A stretch of DNA of 64,000 bases from Patescibacteria group bacterium UBA1406. GTDB taxonomy: Bacteria > Patescibacteriota > Microgenomatia > UBA1406. The translations under genes and the position numbers were made by a program. The notes under the pieces are model-generated. The model was not told the DNA's origin, did no database searches, and worked only from the letters and a program-made list of their open reading frames with translations. Numbering within the stretch: position 1 is the first letter of the stretch; each line of letters begins with the position of its first letter. Of this stretch, positions 17,068 to 36,281 are shown piece by piece. The stretch spans positions 189 to 64,188 of the forward strand of contig DBQA01000001.1 of the NCBI GenBank assembly GCA_002305675.1, read 5' to 3'.

Positions 17068-17075
17068 GGAAAACC

Positions 17076-18902: not shown

Positions 18903-19537
18903 CTTTCCTTGATCAGGAGGCCGGAAACATCAAATCGGTACTCCTTCCTTTTCCGGTCGGTTTCATAATAGAGGATCAGGTGCTCAAGTCTGTCGGGCAT
19001 TCTCTCGACCGAGAACCTGGCAAAAAAGCGCTCTCCGGGCAATCTGGTCTCGCAAATGACCGTCCTATAGGCCGGCTCATGCATCAATCTTCCCGGATTT
19101 CGCCAAGAGCCCATGAAATAACCGGCCTCGGGCAGTTCGAAATAGGCATTAATATCATAAGGATAGGTTCCGAGACCTATCCGGACCGGAGGATAAGGCC
19201 AGGCCAGCTTCTGGGCGTCCTTCCCGATGCCCAATCGGTAAATTCCCCCGAGAGCCTGGTCTTCCGCTTCCCGGTACTGCGGTCTGCCTTTGCCACGGTA
19301 GAGTATGGCCACGTCCACCGCCTTGAACACATCGTTCGCCATGGCTGCATCCATATGGCGCTGCCTGTCCACGAACTCCAGAAGATTGAGCACCCTGTCG
19401 GGCATGGCCATCACCAAAGGCTCTCCGCCTGCCAGATAGAGGTCCGGGCCCATTTCATCCCTATAACGCCGGCTCAGGTCCCAATTGAAATCCTGTCCTT
19501 TCAGTCTTCTCTGGATATCCTTAAATATCTCTACCAT
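18899..19537 (-). CDS. Hypothetical protein
   Basis: 212-aa ORF. The stops overlap by 4 nt with paralog B (convergent). 7-nt overlap with the upstream gene. No recognisable motif. Confidence 0.65.
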   Translation of the reverse strand: MVEIFKDIQRRLKGQDFNWDLSRRYRDEMGPDLYLAGGEPLVMAMPDRVLNLLEFVDRQRHMDAAMANDVFKAVDVAILYRGKGRPQYREAEDQALGGIYRLGIGKDAQKLAWPYPPVRIGLGTYPYDINAYFELPEAGYFMGSWRNPGRLMHEPAYRTVICETRLPGERFFARFSVERMPDRLEHLILYYETDRKRKEYRFDVSGLLIKES

Positions 19538-20274
19538 TTGACGGTACGTTCGACTTCTCTCTGGCGGACCGGGTCACGGTAACAGACATCCATGTAGTTC
19601 TCCCCGGGGTGGATGTCCACCTGCCAGTCGAACCGCTCCCCATCCTCCGGACCTGCTGTCCGGTCGTGCACGGCCAGACGTCCGCTCAGATATAAAAGAC
19701 TGGGATAGGCAATGCCTTCGGCCAGGAAATGGGGCCGGCTGTACGCCAGTTCGACCAGATAGTCCGCCCGGTCGATGATGACCTCCGGACCGTTCATGTT
19801 ATATCCCTGGACCCAATTGTCGTTTCTGACCGCTCCCGTTCTGATGGTAAGCCCTAAAGGGCTTATTACCGGGCCACGGTCCGTCATGATGGTTTCCAGG
19901 GGGCGGCTGTCCATGGCGATGCTGCGCGTCAGGCGGGCGTCCATCTGGGGCATGTCGATAATGGTCGAGAGCGCCCTATCCGGATAGATTCCTGCCTTGT
20001 GGGGAAGATTAAGGCCCAATATCTCCACGCTTCTGGTCAGATTAAAGGGTCCATATCTCTCTTCATCGGCCAGAAGATCGGGATGGGAAGCGAGCCGTCT
20101 GGCCAACAGCATCTCGGCGGGCTGGTAGCGGTAATACCAGTGATTTGCGGCCACGAAAAACCGTCTGTCCACAAAAACATGCGGCCACAGCAGGCTGTTC
20201 GTCGCCGCCGCCCTTAGCGGATCCACCATCCGCACTTCGGGATCGTTCGACCAGCTTGGTATTTCTGTTTTCAT
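19531..20274 (-). CDS. Hypothetical protein
   Basis: 247-aa ORF, first gene of a two-gene minus-strand unit divergent from the M20 peptidase gene. No recognisable motif. Confidence 0.65.
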   Translation of the reverse strand: MKTEIPSWSNDPEVRMVDPLRAAATNSLLWPHVFVDRRFFVAANHWYYRYQPAEMLLARRLASHPDLLADEERYGPFNLTRSVEILGLNLPHKAGIYPDRALSTIIDMPQMDARLTRSIAMDSRPLETIMTDRGPVISPLGLTIRTGAVRNDNWVQGYNMNGPEVIIDRADYLVELAYSRPHFLAEGIAYPSLLYLSGRLAVHDRTAGPEDGERFDWQVDIHPGENYMDVCYRDPVRQREVERTVKW

Positions 20275-20322
20275 TAAATAGACCCCATTGTGTCATAAAT
20301 CTGTAAGAAAAATATATAAATC

Positions 20323-20331
20323 TGGTAAAAT
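20323..20331 (+). promoter_or_regulatory. Extended -10 box TGgTAAAAT, 6 nt before ATG 20338 (leaderless-type)
   Basis: The hexamer ends at 20331 and the ATG is at 20338. No Shine-Dalgarno sequence fits in the gap. Confidence 0.45.
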
Positions 20332-20337
20332 TAGCTA

Positions 20338-21411
20338 ATGTTGCCCCAGATCCTCAAACTAACCAAAGAGCTCATATCCATCAGATCGACCAAAGAGAAC
20401 CCGGCCCTGCTGAAGGAGGTCCTGGAGAGGGCCTTGGCCGAGGTGGGGGAATTTACAGTGGAGCGGTTCGAACGGAACGGCTGCCCCAGTGCGCTCGTGT
20501 ATTACGGAAGCCGTCGTCCAAAACGCTTCAAGATCATCCTCAACGGCCACCTGGACGTGGTCCCGGGCAGGGACGAGCAGTATCAACCTTTCGAGAAGGA
20601 CGGACGTCTCTACGGCCGGGGAGCGTCGGATATGAAGGCCTCCACCGCCGCCCTCCTGTACGTCTTCAAGAACATGGCCGCTAAAGTGGACTATCCCCTG
20701 GCTCTCCAACTGGTCACGGACGAGGAGATCGGCGGATATGACGGCACCAGATACCAGGCAGAGCAGGGGATACTGGCTGATTTCGTCATCGCCGGCGAGG
20801 GAACGGAGCTGAACATCAAGAACGAGACCAAGGGCGTTATCTGGCTGAAGATAAAAACCAAGGGCCGGACCGCGCACGGCGCCTATCTCTGGAAGGGGGA
20901 AAACGCCCTCTGGAAGCTCATGAGGATACTGGAAAGGCTCGAGGCCGAGTTCCCCGAGATCCACAAAGAGGCCTGGGCCACCACCGTCAACCTGGCTAAG
21001 GTGAGTTCGACCAATGAGACCTTCAACAAGGTTCCCGACCAGGCCGAGGCCTGGCTGGATGCCCGCTATATCGCCAGGGACAAGGAGAGTATTGTACCGG
21101 CCTTGAAAAAGATAGCCGGGAAAGAGGCGGAGCTCGACTTCTTGGAGAACGAACCCGAGCATTATACTGCCCCTGACAACCCCTTTATCCGGAAACTGGC
21201 GGACGCGGTCAACGGGCACTTCGGGAACGAGAAGGTAAAGCTTCTCAAGGGGCACGGCGCGTCCGATATCAGGCACTATTCGGCCATCGGGGTGGCCGGG
21301 GTGGAGTTCGGTCCGGTCGGAGCAGGTCTCCATACGGACAACGAGTGGGTGGATACCAAATTCCTGAGCGACTACTACGAAATACTGGCGTCTTTCCTCA
21401 AATCATTGTAG
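20338..21411 (+). CDS. M20-family metallopeptidase (ArgE/DapE/dipeptidase-like)
   Basis: 357 aa. NGHLDVVP, YGRGASDMK, DEEIGG and GTE motifs are typical of M20 zinc peptidases/deacylases. Confidence 0.8.
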   Translation: MLPQILKLTKELISIRSTKENPALLKEVLERALAEVGEFTVERFERNGCPSALVYYGSRRPKRFKIILNGHLDVVPGRDEQYQPFEKDGRLYGRGASDMKASTAALLYVFKNMAAKVDYPLALQLVTDEEIGGYDGTRYQAEQGILADFVIAGEGTELNIKNETKGVIWLKIKTKGRTAHGAYLWKGENALWKLMRILERLEAEFPEIHKEAWATTVNLAKVSSTNETFNKVPDQAEAWLDARYIARDKESIVPALKKIAGKEAELDFLENEPEHYTAPDNPFIRKLADAVNGHFGNEKVKLLKGHGASDIRHYSAIGVAGVEFGPVGAGLHTDNEWVDTKFLSDYYEILASFLKSL

Positions 21412-21514: not shown

Positions 21515-22594
21515 TCAGTTCTTCACCAGCAGCTCGGCAGCTGCCCGCAGAATCTCATCCGGGGTAGGAAGGGGACAGGTTGAGGATGGTTCGATGAATT
21601 TCAGGACCTGGTTCGGGCTTCTTAGATCTTTCTCTACATCAAAATAAAGCACTTTGTGCCTGACCATCCAGGGCGTATGCTCCGGATTGGTGCGGGCATA
21701 CAGAGCCACGACGGGCGTGCCGACCGCGCTCGCGATGTGCATCGGTCCGGTATTGTTGGCTATCAGGAGAGGGGAGAGCTTGATCAGGGCCACGAGTTCC
21801 GAAAGGCTGAGCAGGCCGGCCAAAGAGATGATGTTCGTTCTGCTTTGCCGTTCTATCTCCCTTATGGTTGCACTCTCCGCCTCAAGGCCGGTCAGGCAGA
21901 TCTGATAGCCTAGTTTTTTCCTTATCAGACGGGCCGTCTCTGCGAACAATGCGGGCGGATAACGACGTTTCCGTTCGGAAACTCCCGGATGAATGACCAG
22001 CCAGCGTTTATCAAGATCCACGCCGCCCTCCTTAAGTTTCCGTTTCACTGCCTCCTCCGCTTCTTTGCCGGCCGTCAGCAATACCCGTCTGTCCCGGGCA
22101 GGAACCCCGACCGACCCCACCAGAGCGAGAAGACGCTCGACCGCGTGCCTTTGCAAGAAAAAGGGTTCCGGGTCCGGTACCCAGTCGGTCAAGAGCCGAT
22201 AAGGATTCTCCCGGACATAGGCGAGCCTCCTCGGAATACCGGCCAGATAACAGAGCATAACGGTGGGAAAGGCCGACTGGCTGAAGTTCGTGAATATGAC
22301 CGCCGCCTCGAACTTCTTTTTCCTGATAGCGTCGATCAAGCCCATCACCCCGGCCTCCGAGTCCCGCAACCCGTCGTTTTTGACCCAGGGGAGGGTGTAG
22401 GTGATAACTTCGTCCACTTCCGGCAGCATACGGGCGACGCCGCTGCCCATACGGGAGGTCAGAAGAGTGATCCTTCGTCCAGGACGGTCTTCCTTCAATG
22501 CCCTGATGGCCGGCTGAGCCATAAGCACGTCCCCCAGATTGTCCGGCCGGACACAGAGAATATGGTCCAAGTTCTTGAAACTGTCGCCATTCAT
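21515..22594 (-). CDS. Glycosyltransferase family 9 (heptosyltransferase-like)
   Basis: 359 aa. RPDNLGDVLMAQPAIRALK and NNTGPMHIASAVGTPVV are GT9 hallmarks. Confidence 0.8.
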   Translation of the reverse strand: MNGDSFKNLDHILCVRPDNLGDVLMAQPAIRALKEDRPGRRITLLTSRMGSGVARMLPEVDEVITYTLPWVKNDGLRDSEAGVMGLIDAIRKKKFEAAVIFTNFSQSAFPTVMLCYLAGIPRRLAYVRENPYRLLTDWVPDPEPFFLQRHAVERLLALVGSVGVPARDRRVLLTAGKEAEEAVKRKLKEGGVDLDKRWLVIHPGVSERKRRYPPALFAETARLIRKKLGYQICLTGLEAESATIREIERQSRTNIISLAGLLSLSELVALIKLSPLLIANNTGPMHIASAVGTPVVALYARTNPEHTPWMVRHKVLYFDVEKDLRSPNQVLKFIEPSSTCPLPTPDEILRAAAELLVKN

Positions 22595-22596
22595 GA

Positions 22597-24072
22597 TTAT
22601 CCGGCCTGCCCGGCAGCGAGTATCTTCCTGATGGTGTTGGTGGTCGATCTCTCCGGAATATAGGGCAGGATCTCCACTTTACCCCCTAACGCTTCGACCA
22701 CCGGCGTTTCGGGCAGTATCTCACGGCTATAGTCGCCCCCCTTGACGAAATAATCAGGCCTGACCTTCTTGATCAGGTTGACGGGTGTATCCTCGGCGAA
22801 GGGAACGATCAGATCCACTGCCGTGATGGCGGACAGAACCTTTATCCTCTCCTCCAGGCTGTTTATCGGCCGCGTCTCCCCCTTGAGCCGGCGGACGCTG
22901 GCGTCGGTGTTCAGGCCCACCACCAGCACATCTCCCAGGGATTTTGCCTTCTCCAGGTACCCGACATGCCCGCTGTGGAGAATGTCGAAACACCCGTTCG
23001 TGAAGACAATGCTTTGTCCGCTGGAGCGGTACTCTTTCAGTTTCTCCTGGAGATCCATGTCCCTCGCGATCGATTTGTTATTCGAAATCAGGTAGAGCTC
23101 CAGTTCCATTTTCGTGCATGTTGTTGTTCCATTCTTTTGTACTACCACTGCCGAGGCAGCGGAAGCCAGTTCCATCGCCATCTCACCTCCGGCCCCGGAT
23201 GCCATGGCCAACGCCAACGCGCTCGTAAAGGTGTCTCCCGCTCCAACGGCCTGCATGTTATCAAGCTGTCTGGCGTAAGTACGGTAGGGGACGGGCCTGC
23301 CTTTCTCAAACAGGAGTGCGCCGTCATGGTCCAGCGTTACCGCCGCCCGGCGGGCGCCGGTCAGCTTTAGGATGTCCCGGCCCTTATCCCAAAGCTGGGA
23401 AACCCTTTCCTCGCCGGCATAGCTTCTGGTCAATCCAAGGAGGGTCCTGATCTCCTCATAGTTAGGTTTCACTACCGCCGGCCGGAGTGGCCGGAACCTG
23501 TCCGGTTCTTTCGAGTCGACCACCAAGAGCCGCGGATTTTTGTCCTGCATTATTTTGATCTGTTGGATAAACGTGTCCGTCACCACCCCATAGCCATAGT
23601 CAGAGATGACTATTCCGTCCGCTTTCGCATATTTTTCGGCCAGCCACTCGATCAGGATACCCTCGGTAAATCCGTCCATTCTGTCTAGACCACCCCTGTC
23701 TATCCTCAGGAGAAGGTGGCCGTCGGTGGTGATCCTCTCTTTGGTAATAGTCTCCCGGCCATGGTGGCGGTGCAGCCCTTCCGTATCCACCCCGGCCGCC
23801 ATCAATAGCCTGGACAGGCCGTAACCCTCTCGGTCTTCCCCCACTACGGACAAAAGACTGGTGTTTGCGCCGAGAGCGGCGGCGTTGACGGCGGTATTGG
23901 CCGCTCCTCCCGCCCTGAGGAGGGTTTCTCCCGCCTCCACGATGGGGACGGGAGCTTCCCGACATAACCGGTGGACGGCCCCGTCCATATACACGTCCAG
24001 CATTGCGTCACCGACGACTATTACCTTCAATTCTCCGAATCTATTGATTATCCGTGACGGTTCCTGTGCCAT
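22597..24072 (-). CDS. hldE: Bifunctional D-beta-D-heptose 7-phosphate kinase / D-beta-D-heptose 1-phosphate adenylyltransferase
   Basis: N-terminal ribokinase-like domain (KVIVVGDAMLDVY, GAGDTF) plus C-terminal cytidylyltransferase domain (FTNGCFDILHSGHVGYL). The ORF extends to 24096; MAQEPSR at 24072 fits HldE N-termini better. Confidence 0.85.
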   Translation of the reverse strand: MAQEPSRIINRFGELKVIVVGDAMLDVYMDGAVHRLCREAPVPIVEAGETLLRAGGAANTAVNAAALGANTSLLSVVGEDREGYGLSRLLMAAGVDTEGLHRHHGRETITKERITTDGHLLLRIDRGGLDRMDGFTEGILIEWLAEKYAKADGIVISDYGYGVVTDTFIQQIKIMQDKNPRLLVVDSKEPDRFRPLRPAVVKPNYEEIRTLLGLTRSYAGEERVSQLWDKGRDILKLTGARRAAVTLDHDGALLFEKGRPVPYRTYARQLDNMQAVGAGDTFTSALALAMASGAGGEMAMELASAASAVVVQKNGTTTCTKMELELYLISNNKSIARDMDLQEKLKEYRSSGQSIVFTNGCFDILHSGHVGYLEKAKSLGDVLVVGLNTDASVRRLKGETRPINSLEERIKVLSAITAVDLIVPFAEDTPVNLIKKVRPDYFVKGGDYSREILPETPVVEALGGKVEILPYIPERSTTNTIRKILAAGQAG

Positions 24073-24688
24073 GGAGGTGCCCGTTCGGGCGGCCAACTGC
24101 TATTCTTCTGTCAGTTCCGATGATGTACCGCGCGGCCTGTTCCATATCCGAGGCGATCACTGTCGGTGTCCTCAGGCCGGAAAAGTTCCATTCCGATTCA
24201 TTCTCACCGTTGCTGATGAGTACCGTCCGACAGCCTGCCCTAACGCCCGCTTCCACATCGTTCAGAATATCACCGACCATCCAGGAGAAATTCAGGTCGG
24301 CCCTCAACTCCCTGGCCGCCTTTTTCAACATGCCCGGTTTGGGCTTGCGGCAAGAGCAGTGCAGGGCATAGTGTTCCAAAACGCCATTCGGATGGTGAGG
24401 GCAGTAATAGAAGCCGGACAGTTTGACCCCGTCTTCGAGTAGCATCTCCCTCAACTTCTCCTCGGCCTGAAGAAGGTGTTTCTCGCTGAACTTGCCATGG
24501 GCGACACCGGACTGGTTGGTAATGATGACCAATTGATAACCTTCCTCCATTAGGAGCCGCAGGCCGCTGGCAGTGTGCTCGCGCAGAATTATGAAGCGCG
24601 GGTCCACGTTGTAGGGAACGTTGTACACAAGCGTACCGTCCTTGTCCAGAAAGACCGTCTTCTTCGGTTTGCCATTACTTAAGGCCAT
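24041..24688 (-). CDS. gmhB: D-glycero-D-manno-heptose 1,7-bisphosphate phosphatase (HAD)
   Basis: VFLDKDGTLV (DxD motif), ITNQSG and CPHHP...CSCRKPKPGM are typical of GmhB / histidinol-phosphatase-type HADs. Confidence 0.8.
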   Translation of the reverse strand: MALSNGKPKKTVFLDKDGTLVYNVPYNVDPRFIILREHTASGLRLLMEEGYQLVIITNQSGVAHGKFSEKHLLQAEEKLREMLLEDGVKLSGFYYCPHHPNGVLEHYALHCSCRKPKPGMLKKAARELRADLNFSWMVGDILNDVEAGVRAGCRTVLISNGENESEWNFSGLRTPTVIASDMEQAARYIIGTDRRIAVGRPNGHLHGTGTVTDNQ

Positions 24689-25410
24689 GATGTCTCCAGC
24701 ATTGGTAAGACCATGATCTCGGCGATGTTCGTTTCGGGCGGAGAGGACAGCACAAATTTGATCGTCTCAGCGACATTCCTGGGGTCCTGCAATGTACTCG
24801 GGTCGGTGTCCGGAAAACGGCCCAGGATGAAGGGCGTCCTCATGCCTCCGGCAATGACGGCCGTAACCCTGATGTTCCTGCTTCTGCCCTCGGTCAGGAG
24901 GGCATGGGACAATCCCAGAAGCCCCCATTTGCTCGCATGGTAAGCGGCGGCGTTCTTCCAGGTCCGCTTGGCAGCCGTCGAGGTGATGTTCACGATATGG
25001 CCGGGTGCATCATGTTCTGCCGCCGCTTTGAAAAAGGCTCTCGACAGCACGAAGGGTCCCCTCAGATTTATCCGGAGCACTCTATCGAATTCTTCCACCG
25101 ACATCTCTTCCACGGACTTGGTGACGTCTATGCCGGCATTATTGATAAGTATGTCCAGTCGGCCGTATTTCTGTGATACCCTGTCCATTACCTCATCGAT
25201 ATTCTTCTCGCTTGCGATGTCGAGATACATGCCCTCTATCTTCCGTCCGGTCCCGCGGACTTTTGCCACCAGATGATCCATGTTCTTCTCGTTGATATCT
25301 CCGACCACCACCCTGGCACCGTTCTCCACCAGTATCCTGGCCGTGGCTTCGCCGAGCCCCTGTGCCCCTCCAGTGATCAGAATGACCTTATCGGTCAGCG
25401 GATTATCCAT
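24679..25410 (-). CDS. Classical short-chain dehydrogenase/reductase
   Basis: 243 aa. TGGAQGLG, NNAG and YHASK (YxxxK). Confidence 0.8.
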   Translation of the reverse strand: MDNPLTDKVILITGGAQGLGEATARILVENGARVVVGDINEKNMDHLVAKVRGTGRKIEGMYLDIASEKNIDEVMDRVSQKYGRLDILINNAGIDVTKSVEEMSVEEFDRVLRINLRGPFVLSRAFFKAAAEHDAPGHIVNITSTAAKRTWKNAAAYHASKWGLLGLSHALLTEGRSRNIRVTAVIAGGMRTPFILGRFPDTDPSTLQDPRNVAETIKFVLSSPPETNIAEIMVLPMLETSWP

Positions 25411-27292
25411 AATCCTCTCCCTTCCTTTTCAGACCGTTACTGTTCGCCTTGTGCTGGCCGGGGAAGATCTGCTTTTCAACCAGTTCGGCGATAGTGTGGA
25501 TGACGGCCAGATGGATCTCCTGGACCCTTTGCGGATTGGGGGAAGGGACCACTATCCCGACATCCGTGTGGGAAAGGGCCTTGCCGCCATTGTTGCCGAG
25601 TATCCCCACCGAGATCAACCCCTTTTGTGAGGCTTTCCTAAAGGCCCTGACCACGTTTTCCGAATTGCCGCTCGTGGAAATGCCCACGAGGATATCTCCC
25701 TCCCGTCCATAAGCTTCGACCTGCCTGGCGAACACCTGGGCATACCCGTAGTCGTTGGCCAGGGCGCTGAAGACTGGGGAGTTGGCACTCAGGGCCAGGG
25801 CGGGCAGGGCCTCGCGGTCTTCCAGCATAAAATGGCCGACCAGTTCGGCTGCCAGATGCTCGGCTTCGGCCGCACTGCCGCCGTTACCGCAGACCAGCAC
25901 CTTCCGTCCTTTCTGGAACGCGTCGGAAATGACCCGGCTCGCCTCCAGGATAGGCGCCTGGAGTGTCCTTTTTGCTTTTTTCACCGTCTCGTGCAGGGAC
26001 CGGAAGTTATCGCTGATGATGCCGGTTTGCGTTTCATACTCCTCATAGGCATCGTGGTTCGCCGTCAGCACCTCCTCATAAATGGCCGCCAGGCTGCGGG
26101 CGACTATCGCCCAGGTGAAGAACGTATTGACTCTTTTGGTGGCATTCTCTCTCATCAGTCTGGCCAGGTTCGCATTCCCGAGGATGCCCTTCAGCCTGTC
26201 GGCCAGAAGCTCCGGCTCCTTCGGAGGGACCAGAAAACCGGTTTTTCCGTCCGACACCGTAAATTTGATGCCACCCACGTTGGCGCCTACAACCGGAACA
26301 CCACAGGCCATTGCCTCAAGCAGGGTTATCCCGAAAGGTTCGTACCAGGGGGTACTGACAAAGACATCGGTCGCGTTGTAATAATACTTGAGCTGGTCGC
26401 GGTTCTTGCGGCCGACAAAGGTAACAAAATCATAAACGTTCTCCGCCTTGGCGATCTCCTGCAGTCTGCCTATCTCGGGCGTCATTTCGGGGTCGGGCTC
26501 GTCGCTTTCTCCGCCCACCACCACCAGTCTGGCTTGGATGTCATCCCGCTTGTGCAAGATACCCAAAGCCCGAATCACGTTGTCTATACCCTTACGCCTG
26601 ACCATCCGCCCAAGCTGCAGAATGATCGGGCCGTTGACGGGCAGGTTCAGCGTCATCCGGGAAAGCTGCCTGTCGATAGGGTAGAACTCGTTACGGTCGT
26701 AGCCGCAGGGAACGATAGAGATCTTGTCCTGATTCGCCCCGTAGAAAAAGATCAGATCCTCGCGGTCCTGTGGGCATTCGGCAATGATGCGGTCGGCTTC
26801 CTCAACTATCCTTTCCTCGATAGCGAACCGTTCGTCGGCAAATTCGTCTTCCTCCCCCTGGTGTTCCCTCCGCACGCGGCCGAGCGCATGGAAGGTGACC
26901 ACGAAGGGGGTGCCCGTCTGCCGTTTCAGATCTGCCGCCACCAGGGCGGACATAAAGAAGTTGGCGTGAATAAGCTGGTAATTTAGAGGGTGCTTGGCTA
27001 TGAATGCCATCATGTTTTTGGTAAATTCCTTCATATAAGGCAGCATGTCTTCCTTCCTGACGAACCTGACCGGTCCGGCTTTGACGTGGATAACCCGGAC
27101 ATGTTTCTGGTAATCGACCACCGGCGGCAGCTTCAGGTTGTCCCACCTGGTGAATATGTCAACCTCATACCCGAGCCGGGCCAGATTCTTGCTCACCTGG
27201 TCCACGTAGACGTTTTGCCCACCGCTGTCGACCCCGCCCAGGGTGGCCAGAGGGGAGGCGTGTTCAGAAATAAAGGCTATTCTCTGTCTCAT
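25403..27292 (-). CDS. Fusion protein: GT4 glycosyltransferase (N-terminal) plus SIS-domain phosphoheptose isomerase GmhA (C-terminal)
   Basis: 629 aa. The N-terminal half (IAFISEHASPLATLGGVDSGGQNVYV, ...EPFGITLLEAMACGVPVV) is GT4. The C-terminal ~190 aa (VLVCGNGGSAAEAEHLAAELVGHF, ISTSGNSENV, QEIHL) is GmhA-like. Confidence 0.8.
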   Translation of the reverse strand: MRQRIAFISEHASPLATLGGVDSGGQNVYVDQVSKNLARLGYEVDIFTRWDNLKLPPVVDYQKHVRVIHVKAGPVRFVRKEDMLPYMKEFTKNMMAFIAKHPLNYQLIHANFFMSALVAADLKRQTGTPFVVTFHALGRVRREHQGEEDEFADERFAIEERIVEEADRIIAECPQDREDLIFFYGANQDKISIVPCGYDRNEFYPIDRQLSRMTLNLPVNGPIILQLGRMVRRKGIDNVIRALGILHKRDDIQARLVVVGGESDEPDPEMTPEIGRLQEIAKAENVYDFVTFVGRKNRDQLKYYYNATDVFVSTPWYEPFGITLLEAMACGVPVVGANVGGIKFTVSDGKTGFLVPPKEPELLADRLKGILGNANLARLMRENATKRVNTFFTWAIVARSLAAIYEEVLTANHDAYEEYETQTGIISDNFRSLHETVKKAKRTLQAPILEASRVISDAFQKGRKVLVCGNGGSAAEAEHLAAELVGHFMLEDREALPALALSANSPVFSALANDYGYAQVFARQVEAYGREGDILVGISTSGNSENVVRAFRKASQKGLISVGILGNNGGKALSHTDVGIVVPSPNPQRVQEIHLAVIHTIAELVEKQIFPGQHKANSNGLKRKGEDYG

Positions 27293-28262
27293 AGGATTTA
27301 CCTGAATTTATAGCCCGGGTCATGACCTCTTTCCATCGCCGGGTGAATCTCTCGATCCCAAAGAAGCTATTGGCGGTCAAACGGGCAAAAACACCCAATT
27401 CATAGGCTTTCTCCCTGTTTTGCAGGAGGTCCCGCATTTTTTCCACCAAGTAGTCAACGTCGGTATGGATATATCCCGACACACCGTTCTCGATAACCGT
27501 CGGCAGTTCCGTGGTGGCGAGCCCCACCACCGGCAGACCGGTCATCATGGCCTCAATGAGGGTGAGCCCGAGGCTAGTGTGCCGGATGGGATAGAACAGG
27601 AAGCGGTAGCGGGACAAGGTCCGGGACAGCTCATGGTGGGGGACCTCACCGAGACCGCCGAGCCTCTCGGAACCCATACCTATCAGGTCGAGGGGAACCA
27701 GGTCCCGCACCTTCTCAAAAACATCCAGTCCGAGCCGCCGGCCGCGCCGATCCAGATCATTGACGACTACGACACCCTTAGCCCACTCACCGGTGTAATT
27801 GGCCGGCTCCAAGAGCCGCACGCCATGCTCGATGACCGCCGTGGGAGAGTTACCGTTATCCCACATCAGGCGGTTGTAATGCGTGACATGCACCACCAGG
27901 ATATCCGGTTCCCTGACCACATGGCGGGTATCCGTCGGGCTTTCCCGGGGAGGGTCGTGCTCCAGGTAGATCTTCGGCAGTTCAAGCTGGGCAGGGGAGA
28001 ATAACCTCTTACTGTCGTCCAGGTAATGCTCCCTGTCCTGAAATAGAATGATGTCGAATTCGACTTCCCTCACCCTGTCCGCCGGCACTTCCCGTACATT
28101 GTCCGGCCAGGGTAGACCTTTGGCCCGCCCGCCGTACCCGTTCTTTTTCCAACCGGCTACGGGCAGGATGAATTCATAGTCTGATATCTGCGACAGGTAG
28201 TACAGGTAATTACCGTGGACATGCCAGGTGAAAACTCTGTATTTGCCATTTTCCTTCGTCAT
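27264..28262 (-). CDS. Glycosyltransferase (GT-B, GT4-like)
   Basis: 332 aa. C-terminal SLGLTLIEAMMTGLPVVG...ENGVSGY is an ExxxxxxE-type GT4 motif. Confidence 0.65.
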   Translation of the reverse strand: MTKENGKYRVFTWHVHGNYLYYLSQISDYEFILPVAGWKKNGYGGRAKGLPWPDNVREVPADRVREVEFDIILFQDREHYLDDSKRLFSPAQLELPKIYLEHDPPRESPTDTRHVVREPDILVVHVTHYNRLMWDNGNSPTAVIEHGVRLLEPANYTGEWAKGVVVVNDLDRRGRRLGLDVFEKVRDLVPLDLIGMGSERLGGLGEVPHHELSRTLSRYRFLFYPIRHTSLGLTLIEAMMTGLPVVGLATTELPTVIENGVSGYIHTDVDYLVEKMRDLLQNREKAYELGVFARLTANSFFGIERFTRRWKEVMTRAINSGKSYETENSLYF

Positions 28263-29254
28263 AATCCGTGGCCATGATCGGAGAACTGGTATGTTGCCAA
28301 ATTCCCGTGCTTTTCACCGAGTAACCGCCAGACATGCCCGATAATGTCCGTATAGGTCGCCGCCTCGCCACCCGTCAGGGCGACGTGTTTTTTCCTGTCC
28401 AAAGGCCCCCATCTTTCGACAGACGAATGGGCGGTGAACAGGATAATGCTTTTTGTACCCACCGCCTGGGCCAGATGGGAAACACCTGTGTCATTGGCAA
28501 TAACGAGCTCTGCATTCCTTAGGAGTTCCGCCAGGCACCCTAGGCCGGTCTGGCCTCCTAGGTTGGCGGGGTGGTGGGCCATGAAGTGCTCCACCTGCTC
28601 CAGAAGATCGATCTCTTTGCGGATCCCGGTCAGGGCGGTGGCAAAGCCGGCCGCCTCGAGAGTGTCGCCGAGACGGGCAAACAGGGCAGGGTCGTGCCTT
28701 TTCCGCGGGTCCTTGGCACCAGGATGGAGAACGGTATAAGGTCTCCCCGTCAGGCCGGCCCTTTCCCTAATCATAAGGTATTCCTCCTTCTCCTCGCCTG
28801 ATACCGGGAACTCCAGATGGTTGCCCTGAAGCGGGATGCCCCTGGCCTTTACGAGCATCAGATATTTGACGACCTCGTGTTCCTCCTCCTGCCAGGGCAG
28901 GGTGAGCCCGTAGCCGACCACTTCCTTTGCCTGAAAATCGGCCGCCACCCTGTTTGTTATCTCACCGCTGCCATGCATCTGCCAGACAATGTCAAACCTC
29001 TCCCGCCGCATCCTTTCCATGAATGACTCTGTCCTGGCACTGTCATACGGCTGCTCTGGCAAACCGGGATAGCCCGGGAACTCGATGAACCTGTCCAGAT
29101 ATTTACCGAACCTGTCGGCAAAAGGAGCGGCCCAGGGCAGGGAAATAAGACAGATCTCGGCCCGGCGGTAGTGCCGTCTCAGTGCTCTCAGGGCAGGAAC
29201 GAGGCAGATAAGGTCGCCCAATTCCAAGGCCCTGAATATGGCAATTTTTCTCAT
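28259..29254 (-). CDS. Glycosyltransferase family 9 (heptosyltransferase-like)
   Basis: 331 aa. RALELGDLICLVPALRALR and NDTGVSHLAQAVGT. Confidence 0.75.
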   Translation of the reverse strand: MRKIAIFRALELGDLICLVPALRALRRHYRRAEICLISLPWAAPFADRFGKYLDRFIEFPGYPGLPEQPYDSARTESFMERMRRERFDIVWQMHGSGEITNRVAADFQAKEVVGYGLTLPWQEEEHEVVKYLMLVKARGIPLQGNHLEFPVSGEEKEEYLMIRERAGLTGRPYTVLHPGAKDPRKRHDPALFARLGDTLEAAGFATALTGIRKEIDLLEQVEHFMAHHPANLGGQTGLGCLAELLRNAELVIANDTGVSHLAQAVGTKSIILFTAHSSVERWGPLDRKKHVALTGGEAATYTDIIGHVWRLLGEKHGNLATYQFSDHGHGL

Positions 29255-29376
29255 AACCTGATTGTAAGAATTTGACTTATGACCGTAATCAGAAGGGAGT
29301 AAGAAGTCCTTAAGAGCAAAACAGAAGCCTTACCCCTATCTTACTCTTTTAACGGCTTTTTATTACAGCGGAAGGG

Positions 29377-29382
29377 TATAAA
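29377..29382 (+). promoter_or_regulatory. -10-like TATAAA, 7 nt before ATG 29390 (leaderless-type)
   Basis: gggTATAAAttggaagATG. The gap is too short for a functional SD spacing. Confidence 0.35.
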
Positions 29383-29389
29383 TTGGAAG

Positions 29390-29605
29390 ATGGAATTACC
29401 GAACCTCAAACGTAAACCGGCGCGGCGCTTTTTAAGCCTGGTGCTTTGGTTCATATACGGCCTGCTGAGCTCGCTGGCCGTTTACCTCCTCTTTCCCAAT
29501 GAAGGGATAGAGGCATATCTGGCGCTTCTCTTGATGCCGGTCTTCTTTATGGCTATAGGCATCATGGACGGCCAGGCGGAAAAGATGATCGGGGAAACCC
29601 GGTAA
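29390..29605 (+). CDS. Small membrane protein (2 TM)
   Basis: 71 aa with two hydrophobic helices. Lies 13 nt upstream of the ABC exporter gene. Confidence 0.5.
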   Translation: MELPNLKRKPARRFLSLVLWFIYGLLSSLAVYLLFPNEGIEAYLALLLMPVFFMAIGIMDGQAEKMIGETR

Positions 29606-29618
29606 ACCGATACGGACC

Positions 29619-31415
29619 ATGAAAGGGGAGTACGGGAAAATAATCAGGAATGTATGGCGACTCCTGGTTATTACCTGGGAAGAGGATAAGGTTCTTTTGG
29701 CCGCTTACTTTTCTACCTCTTTTTTAGGGGCCGTCCTTCTCTATGTGGTGTACTATGTGTACAAGCTGATGATCGACCAGGTGGCCGCAGAGATTACCAT
29801 GGGGGGCTTGTCATCGGTCCTTTTTATCATCGTTTCCACCTTCCTGTTCTTTGAGTACCTCTCGCGGTTCGTCAATTTCACCTTCAACCAGTACTACTTC
29901 GATTACCTGATCCGTGCCAAGCTGCAGAACGCCCTGACCAGAAGATTCATGAACAAGTTGGCCGAGCTCGATTTCGGCCTCCTGGAAAGAGGGGATGTCA
30001 GGAACCTGATCGCCAAAGTGGAGGGGTCATACTCATACCGCCTACCGGAGATACTCAAGACCCTTAATGCCATCGTCTATAATCTCGCCGCGCTCCTGTT
30101 TTCCATGCTCATTGCCCTCCGGCTGAACCCTGGCTATTTCGTCATCCTTGCCCTGGTGTCCGCTCCGATCTATTATCTGAGGTCGAAATACGGGAACGCC
30201 GCCTGGTCCCAATATTCCAAGAACGCCTCCGAAACGAACTATATCTGGTATCTCAGGTCCCTGTTCACGAACTTCCAGACGCTCGCAGAAATGAAGATCT
30301 ACGGCCTCCGACAATATTTCATCGACCGGGCTTCAAGCTTTCAGAAAAAGGTCCTTTCCGACTACCAGCGGCCGATACGGACCTACACCTTGTTGTCCAG
30401 TCTGAGCTTCATCCTGATCCCTCTGGCCATCTTCTTTGCCGTCCTCAACTTCATCGGAGCGGTCCGCACGGAACGTTACTCGATCGGCGACTTCACCTTC
30501 TTCCTGAACACCTTGTTCACTTTTTCCGGCCAGATCTCGAGCGTCCTTCTGAATTTCGGTCTGGTGACCGAGAACAGCCTTTTCCTGCATGACTATTTCA
30601 AGCTCCAGGACATCCACAACCAGATCGCCGCACCACGCCCTGCCGTCCGCCTGGAAGGATTGCGGCCCCGGGAGATCGTTTTCGAGAACGTCAGTTTCAG
30701 TTACCAGGGGAGCCGTAACCTGTCGCTGAAGAATGTGAACGTGGTTATTGAGAAAGGCCGGAACGTCGCCATCGTCGGCCATAACGGGGCAGGAAAGAGC
30801 ACTTTCATCAAACTGCTCCTTAGGTTTTACGACCCGACCGAGGGACGGATATTGATTGACGGGAAAGACCTGCGAAGAATAGACCTTAGGGAATGGTATG
30901 CGCATATCGGCATCCTGTTCCAGGATTTCGCCCGGTATTTCACCACTCTAAGGGAGAACATCAGGTTCGGCAACCTTCACCGACCGCCCAACGGCGGGAT
31001 CAGCGAGGCCCTGCACAAATCCGAGGGCGAGGACCTCCTGGAATTTCTGCCTAATAAATATGACCAGATCCTGGGACGGTGGTTCGAACACGGCGTGGAG
31101 CTGTCAGGCGGACAGTGGCAGAAGGTGGCCATTGCCCGGGCCATCTACCGCAATGCCCCCATCCTGATCATGGACGAGCCGACCTCGGCCATCGACGCCG
31201 AAGCGGAACATGCCATCTTCAATAATCTGGACAGTCTCTATCGGGATAAGAGCCTGCTTTTCATCTCCCACCGTTTCTCCACGGTCAGGAAAGCGGACCG
31301 GATATTCGTGTTTGAAAAAGGACAGGTGGTAGAGAAGGGAAGCCACTTGGAACTTTTACGTCAAAACCGGTTATATGCCCACATCTTCCGGCTACAAAGC
31401 CGGGGGTATGAGTAA
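29619..31415 (+). CDS. ABC exporter, fused permease-ATPase (MsbA/lipid-flippase-like)
   Basis: 598 aa with six N-terminal TM helices. Walker A GHNGAGKST, signature LSGGQWQKVAIARA, Walker B ILIMDEPTSAID. Confidence 0.85.
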   Translation: MKGEYGKIIRNVWRLLVITWEEDKVLLAAYFSTSFLGAVLLYVVYYVYKLMIDQVAAEITMGGLSSVLFIIVSTFLFFEYLSRFVNFTFNQYYFDYLIRAKLQNALTRRFMNKLAELDFGLLERGDVRNLIAKVEGSYSYRLPEILKTLNAIVYNLAALLFSMLIALRLNPGYFVILALVSAPIYYLRSKYGNAAWSQYSKNASETNYIWYLRSLFTNFQTLAEMKIYGLRQYFIDRASSFQKKVLSDYQRPIRTYTLLSSLSFILIPLAIFFAVLNFIGAVRTERYSIGDFTFFLNTLFTFSGQISSVLLNFGLVTENSLFLHDYFKLQDIHNQIAAPRPAVRLEGLRPREIVFENVSFSYQGSRNLSLKNVNVVIEKGRNVAIVGHNGAGKSTFIKLLLRFYDPTEGRILIDGKDLRRIDLREWYAHIGILFQDFARYFTTLRENIRFGNLHRPPNGGISEALHKSEGEDLLEFLPNKYDQILGRWFEHGVELSGGQWQKVAIARAIYRNAPILIMDEPTSAIDAEAEHAIFNNLDSLYRDKSLLFISHRFSTVRKADRIFVFEKGQVVEKGSHLELLRQNRLYAHIFRLQSRGYE

Positions 31416-32528
31416 GGTATCTTCCACCCGGGTTTCTTTAACAGTCCGGTCGGCCTTCAGAAGTTCAATGGCGGTCAAGGCCACTTCCGCCACTTTGACC
31501 CCCTTGGTGAACGATGTTAGGTGATCACACCCGATCTTCGGTTCAAAAGGAAACTCCTCGGCGCAGTTCATCCCACACATGGGGCAGTTGATGGTCCATG
31601 AGGCGAGGGCTCGGTGCCGGCGTCGATGAAGAGGAGCGGAGTTGATAAGGTTGGCACACCAGAAAACACCTACGGCCGGCGTATCCAGAGCATAGGCCAG
31701 GTGATAGGGACCGGTATCGTTACTGATGAGGAGAGCTGCGGCCGACAATAGGCCGGTCATCGCCCGGATAGTCAGTTTACCTGCCAGGTTCTCACTGGGC
31801 TCAGTCATTCTGGTCTGTACCTCCCGAACAACGTCCATTTCATCCTCAATGCCGGTGATAACAACCCTGAAACCCCGCTTGGCGAAAAAATCCGCGACGG
31901 CCGCAAACCTGTCCGCCGGCCAGCGGCGTCTCGGGTCCGAGGCGCCGGGGTGAACGACAATAAAACGACTACTGATATCCGCGACCTCCTTTATCTCCCT
32001 GGCATCCTTGTCCGTCAGGCTTACTACCGGTCTGGTTTGGGATGAGGTGGCACCGACACGGGAAACCACTTCCAGGTAGCGCATGTACTCGTTCTGGTAA
32101 TAGACATACGGCACATTGATGTCGAGGGCAGCCGCATCGGGGGTTCTTAAACCTACTGTCAGGGATGCTCCCAATTTGTGAATAAACGGATTGGACTGTC
32201 GTCCGCCGCCATGGAGCTGGAAAGCAAGATCGAAACTTTCCGCCTGCATCTTCTGGAAAAAGGCATCCGTCTCCCTTTGGTCCTCATGCCGGCCGGGCTC
32301 CTGCCTGAGTCCGTCGCTGACAGGCACGACTACCGTCCTGTCTATCACTCCTGGTCTGCCTGCCAGAAACAGGCGATGCCACGGCCGCCCAAGATAGACA
32401 ATCTCGCTCTCAGGATAGGTTTCCCTCAGGGCGGTCAGGGCGGGAAGAATAAAAATGAAATCGCCCAATCCGTTCGCCCTCAGCACGGCTATCTTTTTGA
32501 CATTGACCAGCTTCCTGTTAACCATCAT
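31392..32528 (-). CDS. Glycosyltransferase family 9 (heptosyltransferase-like) with a Cys-rich C-terminal extension
   Basis: 378 aa. RANGLGDFIFILPALTALRE and NDTGPYHLAYALDTP. The C-terminal CANL...CPMCGMNC cluster is unusual for GT9. Confidence 0.7.
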   Translation of the reverse strand: MMVNRKLVNVKKIAVLRANGLGDFIFILPALTALRETYPESEIVYLGRPWHRLFLAGRPGVIDRTVVVPVSDGLRQEPGRHEDQRETDAFFQKMQAESFDLAFQLHGGGRQSNPFIHKLGASLTVGLRTPDAAALDINVPYVYYQNEYMRYLEVVSRVGATSSQTRPVVSLTDKDAREIKEVADISSRFIVVHPGASDPRRRWPADRFAAVADFFAKRGFRVVITGIEDEMDVVREVQTRMTEPSENLAGKLTIRAMTGLLSAAALLISNDTGPYHLAYALDTPAVGVFWCANLINSAPLHRRRHRALASWTINCPMCGMNCAEEFPFEPKIGCDHLTSFTKGVKVAEVALTAIELLKADRTVKETRVEDTLLIPPAL

Positions 32529-33622: not shown

Positions 33623-34738
33623 ATGGGCAACAAAAACCTGACCCAGATCATCATCCTCATCCTCCTGGTGGCCGGCCTGGTATTACTGTCTTTCCGGCGA
33701 AATTATGGCGGCACGGACAACCTTGACGTTCCGGACAACAGTCGCCTGTCCGAAGACCTCAGGCAGATAGTGGTGGTCGCCGACGGTCTCGAGATACCCT
33801 GGGCACTGGCATTTCTACCCGACGAAAGCGTCCTTGTCACCGAACGGCCCGGCCGGGTGCGTCTGATAGACAGGGACGGAAACCTCCGGGAGCAACCGGT
33901 CGCCGTCATAGACGAAGTACTGCATGAAGGGGAGGGCGGTTTATTGGGAGTAGCCGTGCATCCGGACTTTGACCGGAACAGGTACGTTTACCTCTATTAC
34001 ACCTACTCGTCCGAGGGCAGCAGTACTTTGAATAAAGTGGTCCGCTACCGGTTTGAGAATAATGCCCTGACCGATACCCGGACCATCCTTGAAGGCATAC
34101 CCGGCGCCATCAATCATAACGGCGGACGCCTTAGGTTCGGACCGGACAGATTCCTATATGTGACCACCGGTGACGCGGGGGAGCCTTCCTCGGCACAGGA
34201 CCAGAGCAGCCTGGCTGGCAAGATCCTCCGCCTGACAGGTGAGGGTGCACCTGCCCCTGGAAACCCGTTCAACAACGAGGTATACTCGCTCGGGCACCGC
34301 AATCCGCAGGGCCTGGCTTGGGACAGCGAGGACAAACTTTGGTCCGTTGAGCACGGTCCGACAGCACAGGATGAACTGAACAGTATCCGGCCGGGCCGAA
34401 ACTACGGCTGGCCGGTTATAACCGGTGAGGGGAGCAGGGAAGGGATGGAAAACCCCGTCCTTCACAGCGGTGACAATACCTGGGCGCCAGGCGGGGCCGC
34501 TTTCCTGAACGGGACACTCTACTTTACGGGTCTCAGGGGAAACGCCTTATATAAGGTTGATGTTGCGGCCTCCCCACCGGCAATGGAGGAACTCTTTTCC
34601 GGGCGGTTCGGCAGGCTGCGGGAAGTGGTGGCCGGCCCGGATGACATGCTTTACCTTACAACCAGCAATCGGGACGGCCGGGGCTTTACCCAAAGCGGGG
34701 ATGACAAGATCATCCGCTACAATCCCAATTTACCTTAA
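33623..34738 (+). CDS. PQQ-dependent sugar dehydrogenase (soluble glucose/sorbosone dehydrogenase-like beta-propeller)
   Basis: N-terminal signal anchor. [31 protein letters not shown] and NYGWP motifs. Confidence 0.75.
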
Positions 34739-36246
34739 ACCTTCTTTTTAAGGGGAGCTAAGGCAGGACCGTGGATAACTTCACCATCTACCGTAAAGCG
34801 GGAACCATGGCAGGGACAGTCCCAAGATGTCTCGGCACTGTTGAAATTAACCAGGCATCCCATATGCGTGCATTCCGGGGAAATCTCATGTACCTTTCCA
34901 TTCTTATCTTTATAGACGGCTGTTTTCTTACCTTTTTCAGCGATGATTTTTCCCTCCCCCGGTCTTAGGCCGGATACTTTTTCAGTCCTGGCTTTTTTCA
35001 GCCTGTCACTGATATATCTTTTGGCAACCTTAACGTTCCGGTCAACAAGTTCTGCCCCCTCGGCCGCCGGTTTAAAGCGCTGCGGGGAGAAAAGGCCGGC
35101 CCAGCGGTTGTCCTTGCCCCGGATCAGGTCAGAGATAATCTCTGCCCCCACCATACTTGTGGTCATACCCCAACCTTGAAATCCTGTCGCCACAAAAAGG
35201 TGTTCGGCGTTAGGCATGAATCGACCTATAAAAGGTACGTGATCGAACGGGTAGTTGTCCTGGGTGGACCAGCGGTAATCTATGCTCTCCACCCGAAAAT
35301 GCGACCGGGCATAATCCTCGAGCTCCCGGTAGAATCGGTCCGTATCCGAAAACTCCCCGGTCACATGCAGCCCGCCACCGACAATGGTTAGAGTACCTTT
35401 TTCGGTCAGCTGGGTCCTGATATAGTGGGATGGTCGCTCCGTGCTGTCAAACATATCTTTGGCGACTCTGTCCTTGACACGGATACCCAGAACGTAGGAG
35501 CGGTAGGGGGTCATCCGGGCAAAGAAGCCGCCCCGGTCCAGAAAAGGGAAGTGGGTAGCGATGACCACTTCTTTGGCCGTGAGCTCTCCCTTGTTTGTTT
35601 TGACAATACATGGCTCACCCACTTCCACATCCAGGGCCCGGCTGTGTTCAAACACATAACTACCCTCCCTGTCGATTATTTCCGCCAGCCTGAGCAGGTA
35701 TTTTTGCGGGTGGAACTCTGCCTGGTCCGAATATCTGATGGCCCCGGCGGTCGGAAAAGGCAAGGGAGCCGAGCCCTGGTATGAGACGGGTAACCCGGCC
35801 CTTTGGGCCGATTCAAACTCCTGTCTTAATATCTCGAGGTCGTTATTCCTTTCGGCATAAACATATTCAGATACGGATCTGAAATCACAGTCTATTTTAT
35901 ATCTTTTGACCACGGCAGCGATCTGCCCGATCGCAGTCTGGTTGGCTTCGCCATAGATCCGGGCGCCGTCTTTCCCAAAGTTCTTTTCCAGATCGGCATA
36001 GATCAAATCGTGGGCAGAGGAAATATGGGCGGTTGTATGGCCGGTCACGCCGGAACCGATCTCCCGGGCTTCTATGACGGCCACCTTCAGGCCCGATTCC
36101 TTCAATCTCAGGGCAATATTCAAGCCCGCAATGCCGCCGCCAAGCACTGCCACGTCAACTTTAATGCCATCCTTCAGGATGTCGCACCTGCTTTTGAACG
36201 TGGAATCGAGCCAATATGACACCGCTTTACCAGGTAAGCTTTCCAT
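34735..36246 (-). CDS. FAD-dependent oxidoreductase with a C-terminal Rieske [2Fe-2S] domain
   Basis: [12 protein letters not shown] dinucleotide-binding motif. C-terminal CTHMGC...CPCHGSRF Rieske motif. Confidence 0.8.
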
Positions 36247-36281
36247 AAATCCAGATTATTAGATAGTGGTTTAAGAATTGT

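Follow-up and report, generated by a model that had tools for sequence, protein, structure and literature searches.

A putative heptose-glycan gene cassette shared across bacterial phyla, with a copy in a Candidate Phyla Radiation chromosome

Family-9 glycosyltransferases (GT9) that are encoded together with HldE, GmhA and GmhB are usually read as markers of lipopolysaccharide (LPS) and hence of an outer membrane. What do such enzymes make in a chromosome that belongs to the Candidate Phyla Radiation (CPR), which is described in the literature as part of a monoderm clade? This question is raised by an 11-kb block at positions 21515-32528 of a 64-kb stretch of contig DBQA01000001.1 (the window, by which we mean the whole stretch that was analysed). 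We find that the block holds one copy of a gene cassette that recurs in genomes carrying the labels of monoderm as well as of diderm phyla, and we consider it somewhat probable that this conserved cassette has been shared horizontally and that its product in the CPR chromosome is an LPS-independent heptose glycan, built on a non-lipid-A acceptor and exported across a single membrane. The enzyme families are familiar ones; the cassette in which they occur is widely distributed, full-text literature searches aimed at it found no description, and a CPR bacterium is an unexpected host.

The gene block and its relatives in other genomes

Gene families were checked with Pfam and NCBIfam profile scans of the open reading frames (ORFs), about 55 of which were scanned across the whole window. 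An initial annotation, made from the sequence alone, had listed the genes of the block, and all of them were confirmed at the following positions:

21515-22594, minus strand: GT9a, a family-9 glycosyltransferase resembling WaaF, encoded last in the operon (Pfam Glyco_transf_9, E 2.9e-29)
22597-24003, minus strand: hldE, bifunctional heptose-7-phosphate kinase and heptose-1-phosphate nucleotidyltransferase (PfkB and CTP_transf_like domains)
24041-24688, minus strand: gmhB-like HAD-IIIA phosphatase of the heptose 1,7-bisphosphate 7-phosphatase family (GmhB model, 150 bits)
24679-25410, minus strand: classical short-chain dehydrogenase, SDR (adh_short, E 2e-52)
25403-27292, minus strand: GT4::GmhA fusion of 629 aa, with the GT4 domain N-terminal and the GmhA/SIS domain C-terminal
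26048-27292, minus strand: GT4 domain of the fusion, of the sucrose-phosphate-synthase/MshA type (solved relatives 6KIH and 3C48)
25403-26017, minus strand: GmhA (sedoheptulose-7-phosphate isomerase) domain of the fusion (SIS_2, E 2.3e-26)
27264-28262, minus strand: GT4b, a divergent GT-B glycosyltransferase (Pfam match to the C-terminal half only)
28259-29221, minus strand: GT9b, a divergent family-9 glycosyltransferase of 320 aa and the first gene of the operon (Glyco_transf_9, E 6e-25)
29222-29389, no strand: intergenic region from which the cassette operon and the exporter pair diverge (from the gene calls)
29390-29605, plus strand: 71-aa protein with two hydrophobic segments (hydropathy analysis)
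29619-31415, plus strand: ABCB-type half-transporter exporter of 598 aa (ABC_tran, E 1e-32)
31392-32528, minus strand: GT9c, a third family-9 glycosyltransferase (Glyco_transf_9, E 8e-29)

Between neighbours among the seven minus-strand genes from GT9b (29221) to GT9a (21515) there is either an overlap of 4-29 nt or a gap of 2-37 nt, and we therefore treat the seven genes as one operon. The exporter gene starts 13 nt after the 71-aa gene, the pair being divergent from the cassette operon, and GT9c is convergent with the exporter gene, which it overlaps at the 3' end by 24 nt. For hldE, gene callers return a protein of 468 aa, not the 499-aa TTG ORF. The GmhA domain that had been noticed earlier is present (190 bits on the gmhA model TIGR00441, cut-off 209), but not as a free-standing unit, since it is fused to the C-terminus of the GT4. 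A scan of 21-33 kb for sigma-70 promoters and terminators found sites no more numerous than in shuffled sequence, and the GC content of the cassette is not distinct from that of the rest of the window.

To collect related loci, an alignment of GT4::GmhA relatives was run against genomes representing each GTDB species once, and the best 80 of at least 599 confirmed stretches were compared. Going by the labels in their record titles, 27 of these 80 loci belong to Bacteroidota, 14 to Cyanobacteria, 12 to Proteobacteria and Myxococcota, 11 to Chloroflexota, 5 to Actinomycetota, 4 to Planctomycetota and 2 to Patescibacteria, with 5 under other labels, so that the labels span at least nine phyla. 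In tblastn comparisons with the window proteins the loci share one gene order, namely GT9b, a variable position, GT4b, GT4 (with or without GmhA), gmhB and GT9a, with the SDR gene before gmhB and hldE after it where these are present. Most cassette genes are about 40-60% identical to the window proteins, and the identity is similar in monoderm-labelled and diderm-labelled phyla. The same 22-kb arrangement was moreover found in two independent assemblies; together with the recurrent gene order in the 80 loci, this shows that the arrangement is due neither to chance nor to misassembly.

The composition of the cassette was determined from those 58 loci that have 5 kb or more of surrounding sequence to each side. 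A GT9a-type gene is present in 57/58 of them, a second GT9 in 55/58, GT4b in 54/58 and gmhB in 53/58 (in 50/58 within 1.7 kb downstream of the GT4); hldE and the GmhA fusion each occur in 34/58 and the SDR in 33/58. Where hldE and the GmhA fusion are both missing, gmhB is retained in 16/17 loci. Natural fusions of the types GT9::GT4b and GT4b::GT4 were also observed, which ties these enzymes to one pathway. GT4b itself is not rare: its relatives form 120 clusters (E <= 1e-30) among 1.84 billion representative proteins.

Several accessory genes recur beside the cassette, most often a NodU/CmcH-type carbamoyltransferase (37 loci) and a GT2 whose membrane segments are C-terminal (36 loci), and in some loci a radical-SAM/SPASM protein or another GT2; a CPR contig (L089) is among the loci with carbamoyltransferase, GT2 and radical-SAM accessories. 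This suggests that the product is carbamoylated in those lineages that have the carbamoyltransferase. Among 143 flanking ORFs of 18 monoderm-labelled loci, the commonest Pfam families were GT2, ABC_tran, carbamoyltransferase and MFS, and none of the top 25 was a phosphoglycosyltransferase, Wzx/Wzy, lipid A or 3-deoxy-D-manno-octulosonic acid (Kdo) family. Lipid A and LPS core families were likewise not seen among the recurrent neighbours in the 80 loci, nor was undecaprenyl-phosphate machinery seen in the window.

The carriers include isolates and complete genomes, such as those of Chlorogloeopsis fritschii PCC 6912, Nannocystis pusilla, Tundrisphaera sp. TA3, Noviherbaspirillum sp. ST 5-3, Pedobacter yulinensis and Dawidia cretensis. 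Culturable carriers (Chlorogloeopsis fritschii PCC 6912, Nannocystis pusilla and Mucilaginibacter, Pedobacter and Noviherbaspirillum species) make the product experimentally accessible.

Host affiliation and exporter

The window is chromosomal, with genes for YchF, QueA, XerD, YebC, DnaB, Tgt and RNase J, a 5S rRNA gene and two tRNA genes. Among named sequences, its DnaB is closest to those of Candidatus Roizmanbacteria (59-64% identity) and of entries named 'Patescibacteria group' (59-61%), relatives without a name reach up to 80% identity, and the pair formed by the DnaB gene and a hydrolase gene is syntenic with a Patescibacteria assembly. The ABC exporter of the block has more than 120 relatives at 50-67% identity, and all of the named ones come from Patescibacteria, Roizmanbacteria, Microgenomates or Saccharimonadales. 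From these two affinities, the host is a CPR bacterium, probably of the Roizmanbacteria-like kind. A Chloroflexota host, considered on the basis of named GT4::GmhA relatives, was ruled out by the same two affinities; because the cassette is shared across phyla, relatives of GT4::GmhA are uninformative on host taxonomy.

No match to an lpx, kds or waaA family was found among the ~55 ORFs of the window. The 6-epimerase HldD is not seen in the window either, the best-scoring ORF on the HldD model being GalE (103 bits, cut-off 274.6), and it does not recur beside the cassette in related loci. Two candidates for HldD were rejected: the gene at 11876-12892 is galE (341 bits, cut-off 262), and the gene at 2552-3529, with 55 bits on the HldD model, encodes an extended SDR that resembles D-erythronate dehydrogenase. 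The initial annotation had remarked on the absence of all these genes from the window, and the profile scans of the 64 kb bear this out.

The exporter has its hydrophobic segments in the N-terminal 290 residues and its ABC_tran domain at residues 370-523, which is the architecture of an ABCB half-transporter. It aligns over its full length with Atm1 (4MRN), and Atm1 4MRN and MsbA 6O30 both match at about E 1e-55. The models for MsbA, MsbA-related proteins, glucan exporters and PglK are matched at E 1e-42 to 1e-81, yet every equivalog score stays below its cut-off: 262 bits against 602 (TIGR02203) and 224 against 867 (PRK11176) for MsbA, 273 against 780 for the MsbA-related model TIGR02204, and 239 against 733 for the glucan exporter. 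The membrane domain gives no match to Pfam ABC_membrane. Thus, the earlier description of this protein as MsbA-like is correct at the level of the ABCB class but does not extend to MsbA itself. With the ABCB glycoconjugate exporters (MsbA, PglK, NdvA/ChvA) it shares the half-transporter layout, with the membrane domain at the N-terminus and the nucleotide-binding domain at the C-terminus; it differs in belonging to a subfamily whose named members are all Patescibacteria and in being paired with a small gene for a protein with two transmembrane segments.

Exporter homologues with 60-64% identity lie in the same divergent position beside the cassette in three further contigs, L012, L088 and L089. 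The first of these is labelled Ca. Roizmanbacteria, and the other two are taken as CPR because of their exporter subfamily. With the window, this makes four contigs, and the association of exporter and cassette, which had been proposed from the window, is thus real within this CPR subclade. A homologue with 53% identity occurs elsewhere in an unrelated context. The 71-aa protein has no Pfam or NCBIfam match and no tblastn homologue. Small ORFs occupy its position in L012 (64 aa, with two hydrophobic stretches as judged by eye) and in L089 (56 aa), without significant similarity.

Enzymes, acceptor and competing readings

The three enzymes of heptose activation are recognizable at the family level. 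HldE scores 370 bits against a cut-off of 521 on the whole-protein model PRK11316, and its domain II exceeds the cut-off of the rfaE domain II model (198.6 against 181.5 bits). The GmhB-like protein, in which the CxH...CxC zinc-loop pattern is visible, stays below both equivalog cut-offs (150 bits against 178 on PRK08942; 130 against 149.6 on TIGR00213). The GmhA domain matches GmhA structures at E 1e-45 to 1e-39, and H479, E483, Q591 and H599, which we take to be its catalytic residues, are invariant in a 19-sequence alignment. The HldE type, with its PfkB and cytidylyltransferase-like domains, predicts a product of the beta-D,D-heptose series, and without HldD the heptose would stay in the D-glycero form; the D,D-heptose product suggested in the initial annotation is consistent with this. 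As to the nucleotide, the C-terminal motif of the window HldE reads YIPERSTT, and an Arg immediately before STT occurs in 17/26 cassette HldE proteins. In a commentary on Tang et al. (2024) it is reported that an Arg in the fifth place of the motif (F/L)XXGXSTT permits the synthesis of CDP- and UDP-heptose, so the nucleotide need not be ADP alone: the HldE product may be ADP-heptose and possibly also CDP- or UDP-heptose. The SDR shows the motifs TGxxxGxG, NNAG and YxxxK and an Asp after strand beta-2, and probably prefers NAD.

The GT9 domain PF01075 matches GT9a, GT9b and GT9c at E 6e-25 to 3e-29. GT9a is the only one of the three to reach the cut-off of any LPS heptosyltransferase model, and this barely (136.4 bits against 134.6 on the WaaF model TIGR02195, but 86 against 569 with the E. 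coli-type model for RfaF). As a consequence, automatic annotation would call it lipopolysaccharide heptosyltransferase II. Its best solved relative, WaaF 1PSW, is a weak match (E 4e-19), and its orthologues are 41-52% identical. GT9b, with orthologues at 31-44% identity, reaches 54 bits against 185 on its best LPS model, heptsyl_trn_I, and matches almost nothing among solved structures. GT9c attains 77 bits against 170 on its best LPS model and has a Veillonella GT9 (3TOV, E 1e-18) as its best solved relative; orthologues with 47-49% identity stand beside the cassette in four related loci (L022, L088, L019 and L073), and in L088 the gene is convergent with the exporter, as in the window. On the autotransporter heptosyltransferase model TIGR04414, GT9c scores 18.5 bits against 200, and GT9a and GT9b give no match. 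By these scores, and by their weak matches to solved WaaF and WaaC structures, GT9a-c are not orthologues of WaaC or WaaF.

In comparison with the proteobacterial LPS inner-core system (GmhA, HldE, GmhB and HldD, with WaaC/F/Q), the cassette has the same SIS isomerase, PfkB-nucleotidyltransferase fusion, HAD-IIIA phosphatase and GT9 enzymes of the GT-B fold. The differences are the CPR host, the lack of HldD, waaA, lpx and kds in the window, the fusion of GmhA to a GT4, and GT9 scores that are far below the LPS cut-offs for GT9b and GT9c and at threshold for GT9a. The initial annotation had argued that a canonical lipid A core is probably not the acceptor, and this view has indirect but convergent support from the CPR host, from the presence of the same cassette in monoderm- and diderm-labelled phyla, from flanks in which lipid A and Kdo genes were not seen, and from the GT9 model scores. 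We therefore regard Kdo-lipid A as a very unlikely acceptor.

The GT4 enzymes give some hints as to what the acceptor could be. Over the whole domain, the best solved relatives of the fused GT4 are 6KIH, the sucrose-phosphate synthase Tll1590 (TeSPS) of Thermosynechococcus elongatus (E 1e-79), and 3C48, the MshA of Corynebacterium glutamicum (E 4e-61); with 288 bits against a cut-off of 462 on the MshA model, it is not an MshA equivalog. In TeSPS, Arg105 and Arg178 hold the phosphate of sucrose-6-phosphate. In alignments read by eye, K80 of the fused GT4 aligns with TeSPS R105 and MshA K78, and R155 with TeSPS R178 and MshA R154, the two MshA residues being ligands of inositol phosphate. Both K80 and R155 are invariant in the 19-sequence alignment, and the catalytic His and the EX7E residues also align with TeSPS and MshA. 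Two further phosphate ligands of MshA, Y110 and T134, are replaced by the invariant residues F112 and A136. From this pattern, the acceptor of the fused GT4 is probably anionic and phosphate-bearing.

GT4b has no N-terminal domain that can be recognized by sequence, and its AlphaFold2 model (predicted local distance difference test score, pLDDT, 94) shows a full GT-B fold. Among solved structures, its fold comes closest to those of TeSPS, BshA, glucosylsucrose synthase Tll1591 (TeGSS) and MshA, with Foldseek E-values that are nearly flat across GT4 enzymes. The idea that GT4b and GT4 are a copy of the tll1591/tll1590 pair, with GT4b as the Tll1591 homologue, was ruled out by profile and fold searches. 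A profile of 27 GT4b relatives matched solved structures over the C-terminal ~110 residues only, and Tll1591 appeared in it with E 4.7e-9, behind BshA, TeSPS and TreT, and as third in the fold search. We keep Tll1591 as a possible functional precedent only, by analogy, and not as a homologue of GT4b.

With Tll1590 (6KIH) and MshA (3C48/3C4V) the cassette has in common the whole-domain GT4 match, a Lys/Arg pair that lines up with their acceptor-phosphate ligands and an adjacent phosphatase gene, which recalls the logic of synthase plus phosphatase in sucrose and mycothiol synthesis. In contrast to those systems, the GT4 is fused to GmhA and not to an SPP-like domain, it sits between GT9 genes, two phosphate ligands of MshA that act by H-bonds are replaced, and there are no mshB/mshC-type or sucrose genes.

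The reading we favour, to which we give somewhat better than even weight, can be put as follows. Going by family membership, the GmhA domain would convert sedoheptulose-7-phosphate to the 7-phosphate of D-glycero-D-manno-heptose, the HldE kinase domain would form the 1,7-bisphosphate, GmhB would remove the 7-phosphate, and the HldE transferase domain would yield a nucleoside-diphosphate (NDP)-D,D-heptose, with no 6-epimerase taking part. Five soluble GT-B enzymes (three GT9 and two of GT4 type) would then assemble a short heptose-containing oligosaccharide at the cytoplasmic face, on an acceptor that is not Kdo-lipid A and that probably carries a phosphate, and the NAD-type SDR may modify one sugar or the acceptor. 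In the CPR lineage, the dedicated ABCB-type exporter and its small partner with two transmembrane segments would carry the product to the cell surface across the single membrane; we infer this coupling of exporter and product from their conserved linkage.

A heptose outside LPS has precedents in the pathways to GDP-D-glycero-alpha-D-manno-heptose for the S-layer of Aneurinibacillus thermoaerophilus and the capsule of Campylobacter jejuni, which include a monoderm. Kinase and guanylyltransferase are distinct enzymes there, the GHMP-type HddA and the NTP_transferase-type HddC, whereas the cassette has an HldE-type fusion of PfkB and cytidylyltransferase-like domains, and GT9 transferases.

Several observations weigh against the glycan just described, or against parts of it. 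Many of the phylum labels come from metagenome-assembled genomes and can be wrong, and the monoderm status of the host is an inference from taxonomy and the literature, the lpx/kds/waaA scan having covered the 64-kb window. All pathway enzymes except HldE domain II fall below the NCBIfam equivalog cut-offs. None of the core enzymes has a convincing transmembrane segment (isoelectric points, taken as a proxy for membrane association, were uninformative), and neither an initiating enzyme nor a membrane anchor for the glycan was identified. Both the fused GT4 and GT4b are closest to GT4 enzymes with small soluble acceptors, which fits a soluble product better than a glycolipid and makes a soluble oligosaccharide a live alternative. 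Finally, in the majority of loci outside CPR no such exporter lies within 10 kb, and exporters near the cassette are sporadic and more distant outside the CPR subclade. Export is thus not intrinsic to the cassette; it appears to be a lineage-specific addition to it.

The strongest competitor, which we hold to be possible but clearly the less probable account, is a soluble pathway in the style of sucrose or mycothiol synthesis. Here the SPS/MshA-like GT4 would use as its acceptor the heptose-7-phosphate that the GmhA domain of the same protein produces, the GmhB-like phosphatase would remove the 7-phosphate as a counterpart of sucrose-phosphate phosphatase or MshA2, and GT4b and the GT9s would lengthen the free disaccharide with hexose and NDP-heptose to a soluble oligosaccharide, which would stay in the cell as a solute or, in CPR, leave it through the ABC exporter. 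The closest solved relatives of the GT4 use soluble phosphorylated acceptors, and the invariant K80 and R155 match the ligands of the acceptor phosphate. The frequent fusion to GmhA, the position of gmhB close behind the GT4 and its retention where hldE and the fusion are missing all fit this scheme, as do the nearest folds of GT4b, which are mostly small-acceptor enzymes (SPS, BshA, glucosylsucrose synthase and MshA), the lack of convincing membrane segments in the core enzymes and the lack of a phosphoglycosyltransferase nearby. A precedent exists in the adjacent genes tll1590 (SPS) and tll1591, which make soluble glucosylsucrose oligosaccharides. However, the canonical NDP-heptose route already accounts for GmhA, HldE and GmhB and leaves no enzyme over, two of the four phosphate ligands of MshA are replaced, and the flat Foldseek E-values lessen what the fold of GT4b can say. 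Known GT9 acceptors are lipid-linked glycans or proteins; we know of no heptose-based solute and found none in the literature. Were this pathway true, a heptose-based oligosaccharide would exist in bacteria of at least nine phyla, secreted by a dedicated ABC exporter in CPR and carbamoylated in other lineages, and GT9 'LPS heptosyltransferases' would have a widespread role unrelated to lipid A.

The two remaining explanations are less likely than either of these. Heptosylation of a protein at the cell surface, for instance a pilin, S-layer protein or adhesin, in the manner of the autotransporter heptosyltransferases (TibC/Aah, BAHT), seems improbable to us. CPR cells rely on surface structures for host attachment. 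GT9 enzymes can modify proteins, and the cassette shares with this system the GT9 fold and the use of NDP-heptose, a building block for protein glycosylation via aah according to the commentary on Tang et al. Against this stand the TIGR04414 scores, the lack of an autotransporter-like substrate gene nearby and of any conserved candidate substrate protein adjoining the cassette in related loci, and the fact that a cytoplasmic route would need no dedicated ABCB exporter. An ordinary LPS inner-core locus, in which a diderm host would encode WaaC/WaaF/WaaQ, the enzymes of ADP-heptose synthesis and MsbA and would have its genes for lipid A and Kdo in another place, is in our estimation highly improbable: it draws on the marginal TIGR02195 score of GT9a and on the many diderm carriers, whose loci often bear a carbamoyltransferase, a feature that may recall the core cluster of Pseudomonas aeruginosa, but it is at odds with the Patescibacteria affinity of DnaB and exporter, with scores far below the cut-offs for GT9b, GT9c and all E. 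coli-type models and for the exporter on the MsbA models, with waaA, lpx and kds being neither in the window nor recurrent in related-locus flanks, and with the same cassette in Chloroflexota-, Actinomycetota- and Patescibacteria-labelled loci.

In genomes that carry the cassette, automatic calls of an 'LPS heptosyltransferase' would mislead inferences on the type of envelope. CPR bacteria have, according to the literature, small genomes and large biosynthetic deficits, and that 11 kb go to one glycan and an exporter for it implies a product of importance, plausibly at the CPR cell surface, the site of host contact. NDP-heptoses are innate-immune agonists, as the commentary on Tang et al. states, and producers of NDP-heptose outside LPS synthesis widen the possible sources of these agonists.

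Other genes and regions of the window

Beside the cassette lie two genes for large soluble proteins, at 15246-17042 (598 aa) and 17202-18902 (566 aa), neither with a Pfam or NCBIfam match; their mutual similarity is marginal (E 0.012), and a sequence search of solved structures gave no match for the protein at 17202-18902. They are followed by two genes without a family (18899-19537 and 19531-20274) and by an M20 deacylase of the ArgE/DapE type (20338-21411). By analogy with mycothiol synthesis, the deacylase and the four no-family genes (15246-21411) were considered as members of the system and rejected, as other genomes have none of them next to the cassette.

A few kb from the cassette, a strain-level rearrangement is seen between the window (34735-36926) and assembly SRR8427164 (contig L002, 1-2558), where a 567-aa resolvase-like gene replaces the N-terminal half of the FAD/Rieske oxidoreductase of the window.

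The window also holds a second set of envelope-glycosylation genes. It includes a GT2 of the polyprenyl-phosphate glycosyltransferase type (AglJ/DPM-like, 44109-45077), overlapped by a gene for a 551-aa protein with about 12 hydrophobic segments and no family match (45034-46689), and upstream gmd, galE, a GT4, a phosphodiesterase and a PAPS-reductase-like gene. A separate 493-aa gene at 1061-2542 encodes about 10 hydrophobic segments.

Two ATP-grasp genes, at 58379-59428 and 60859-61884, resemble D-Ala-D-Ala ligase without reaching the equivalog cut-offs, and they enclose a 473-aa ORF without a family match (59441-60862). The 5S rRNA gene (62031-62146) stands alone after tRNA-Gly (61913-61984), with RNase J next on the opposite strand; since no 23S rRNA gene is adjacent, the 5S gene is unlinked from other rRNA genes here.

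The GC content is lower at 36001-38000 and 48001-50000 (0.47-0.48, against ~0.55). The second of these regions contains a stretch of about 800 nt without a called gene (48523-49317), which has no Rfam match. The gene at 47680-48522 encodes an isopentenyl phosphate kinase of the archaeal type (133.5 bits, cut-off 120) and may point to an alternative mevalonate pathway in the CPR host.

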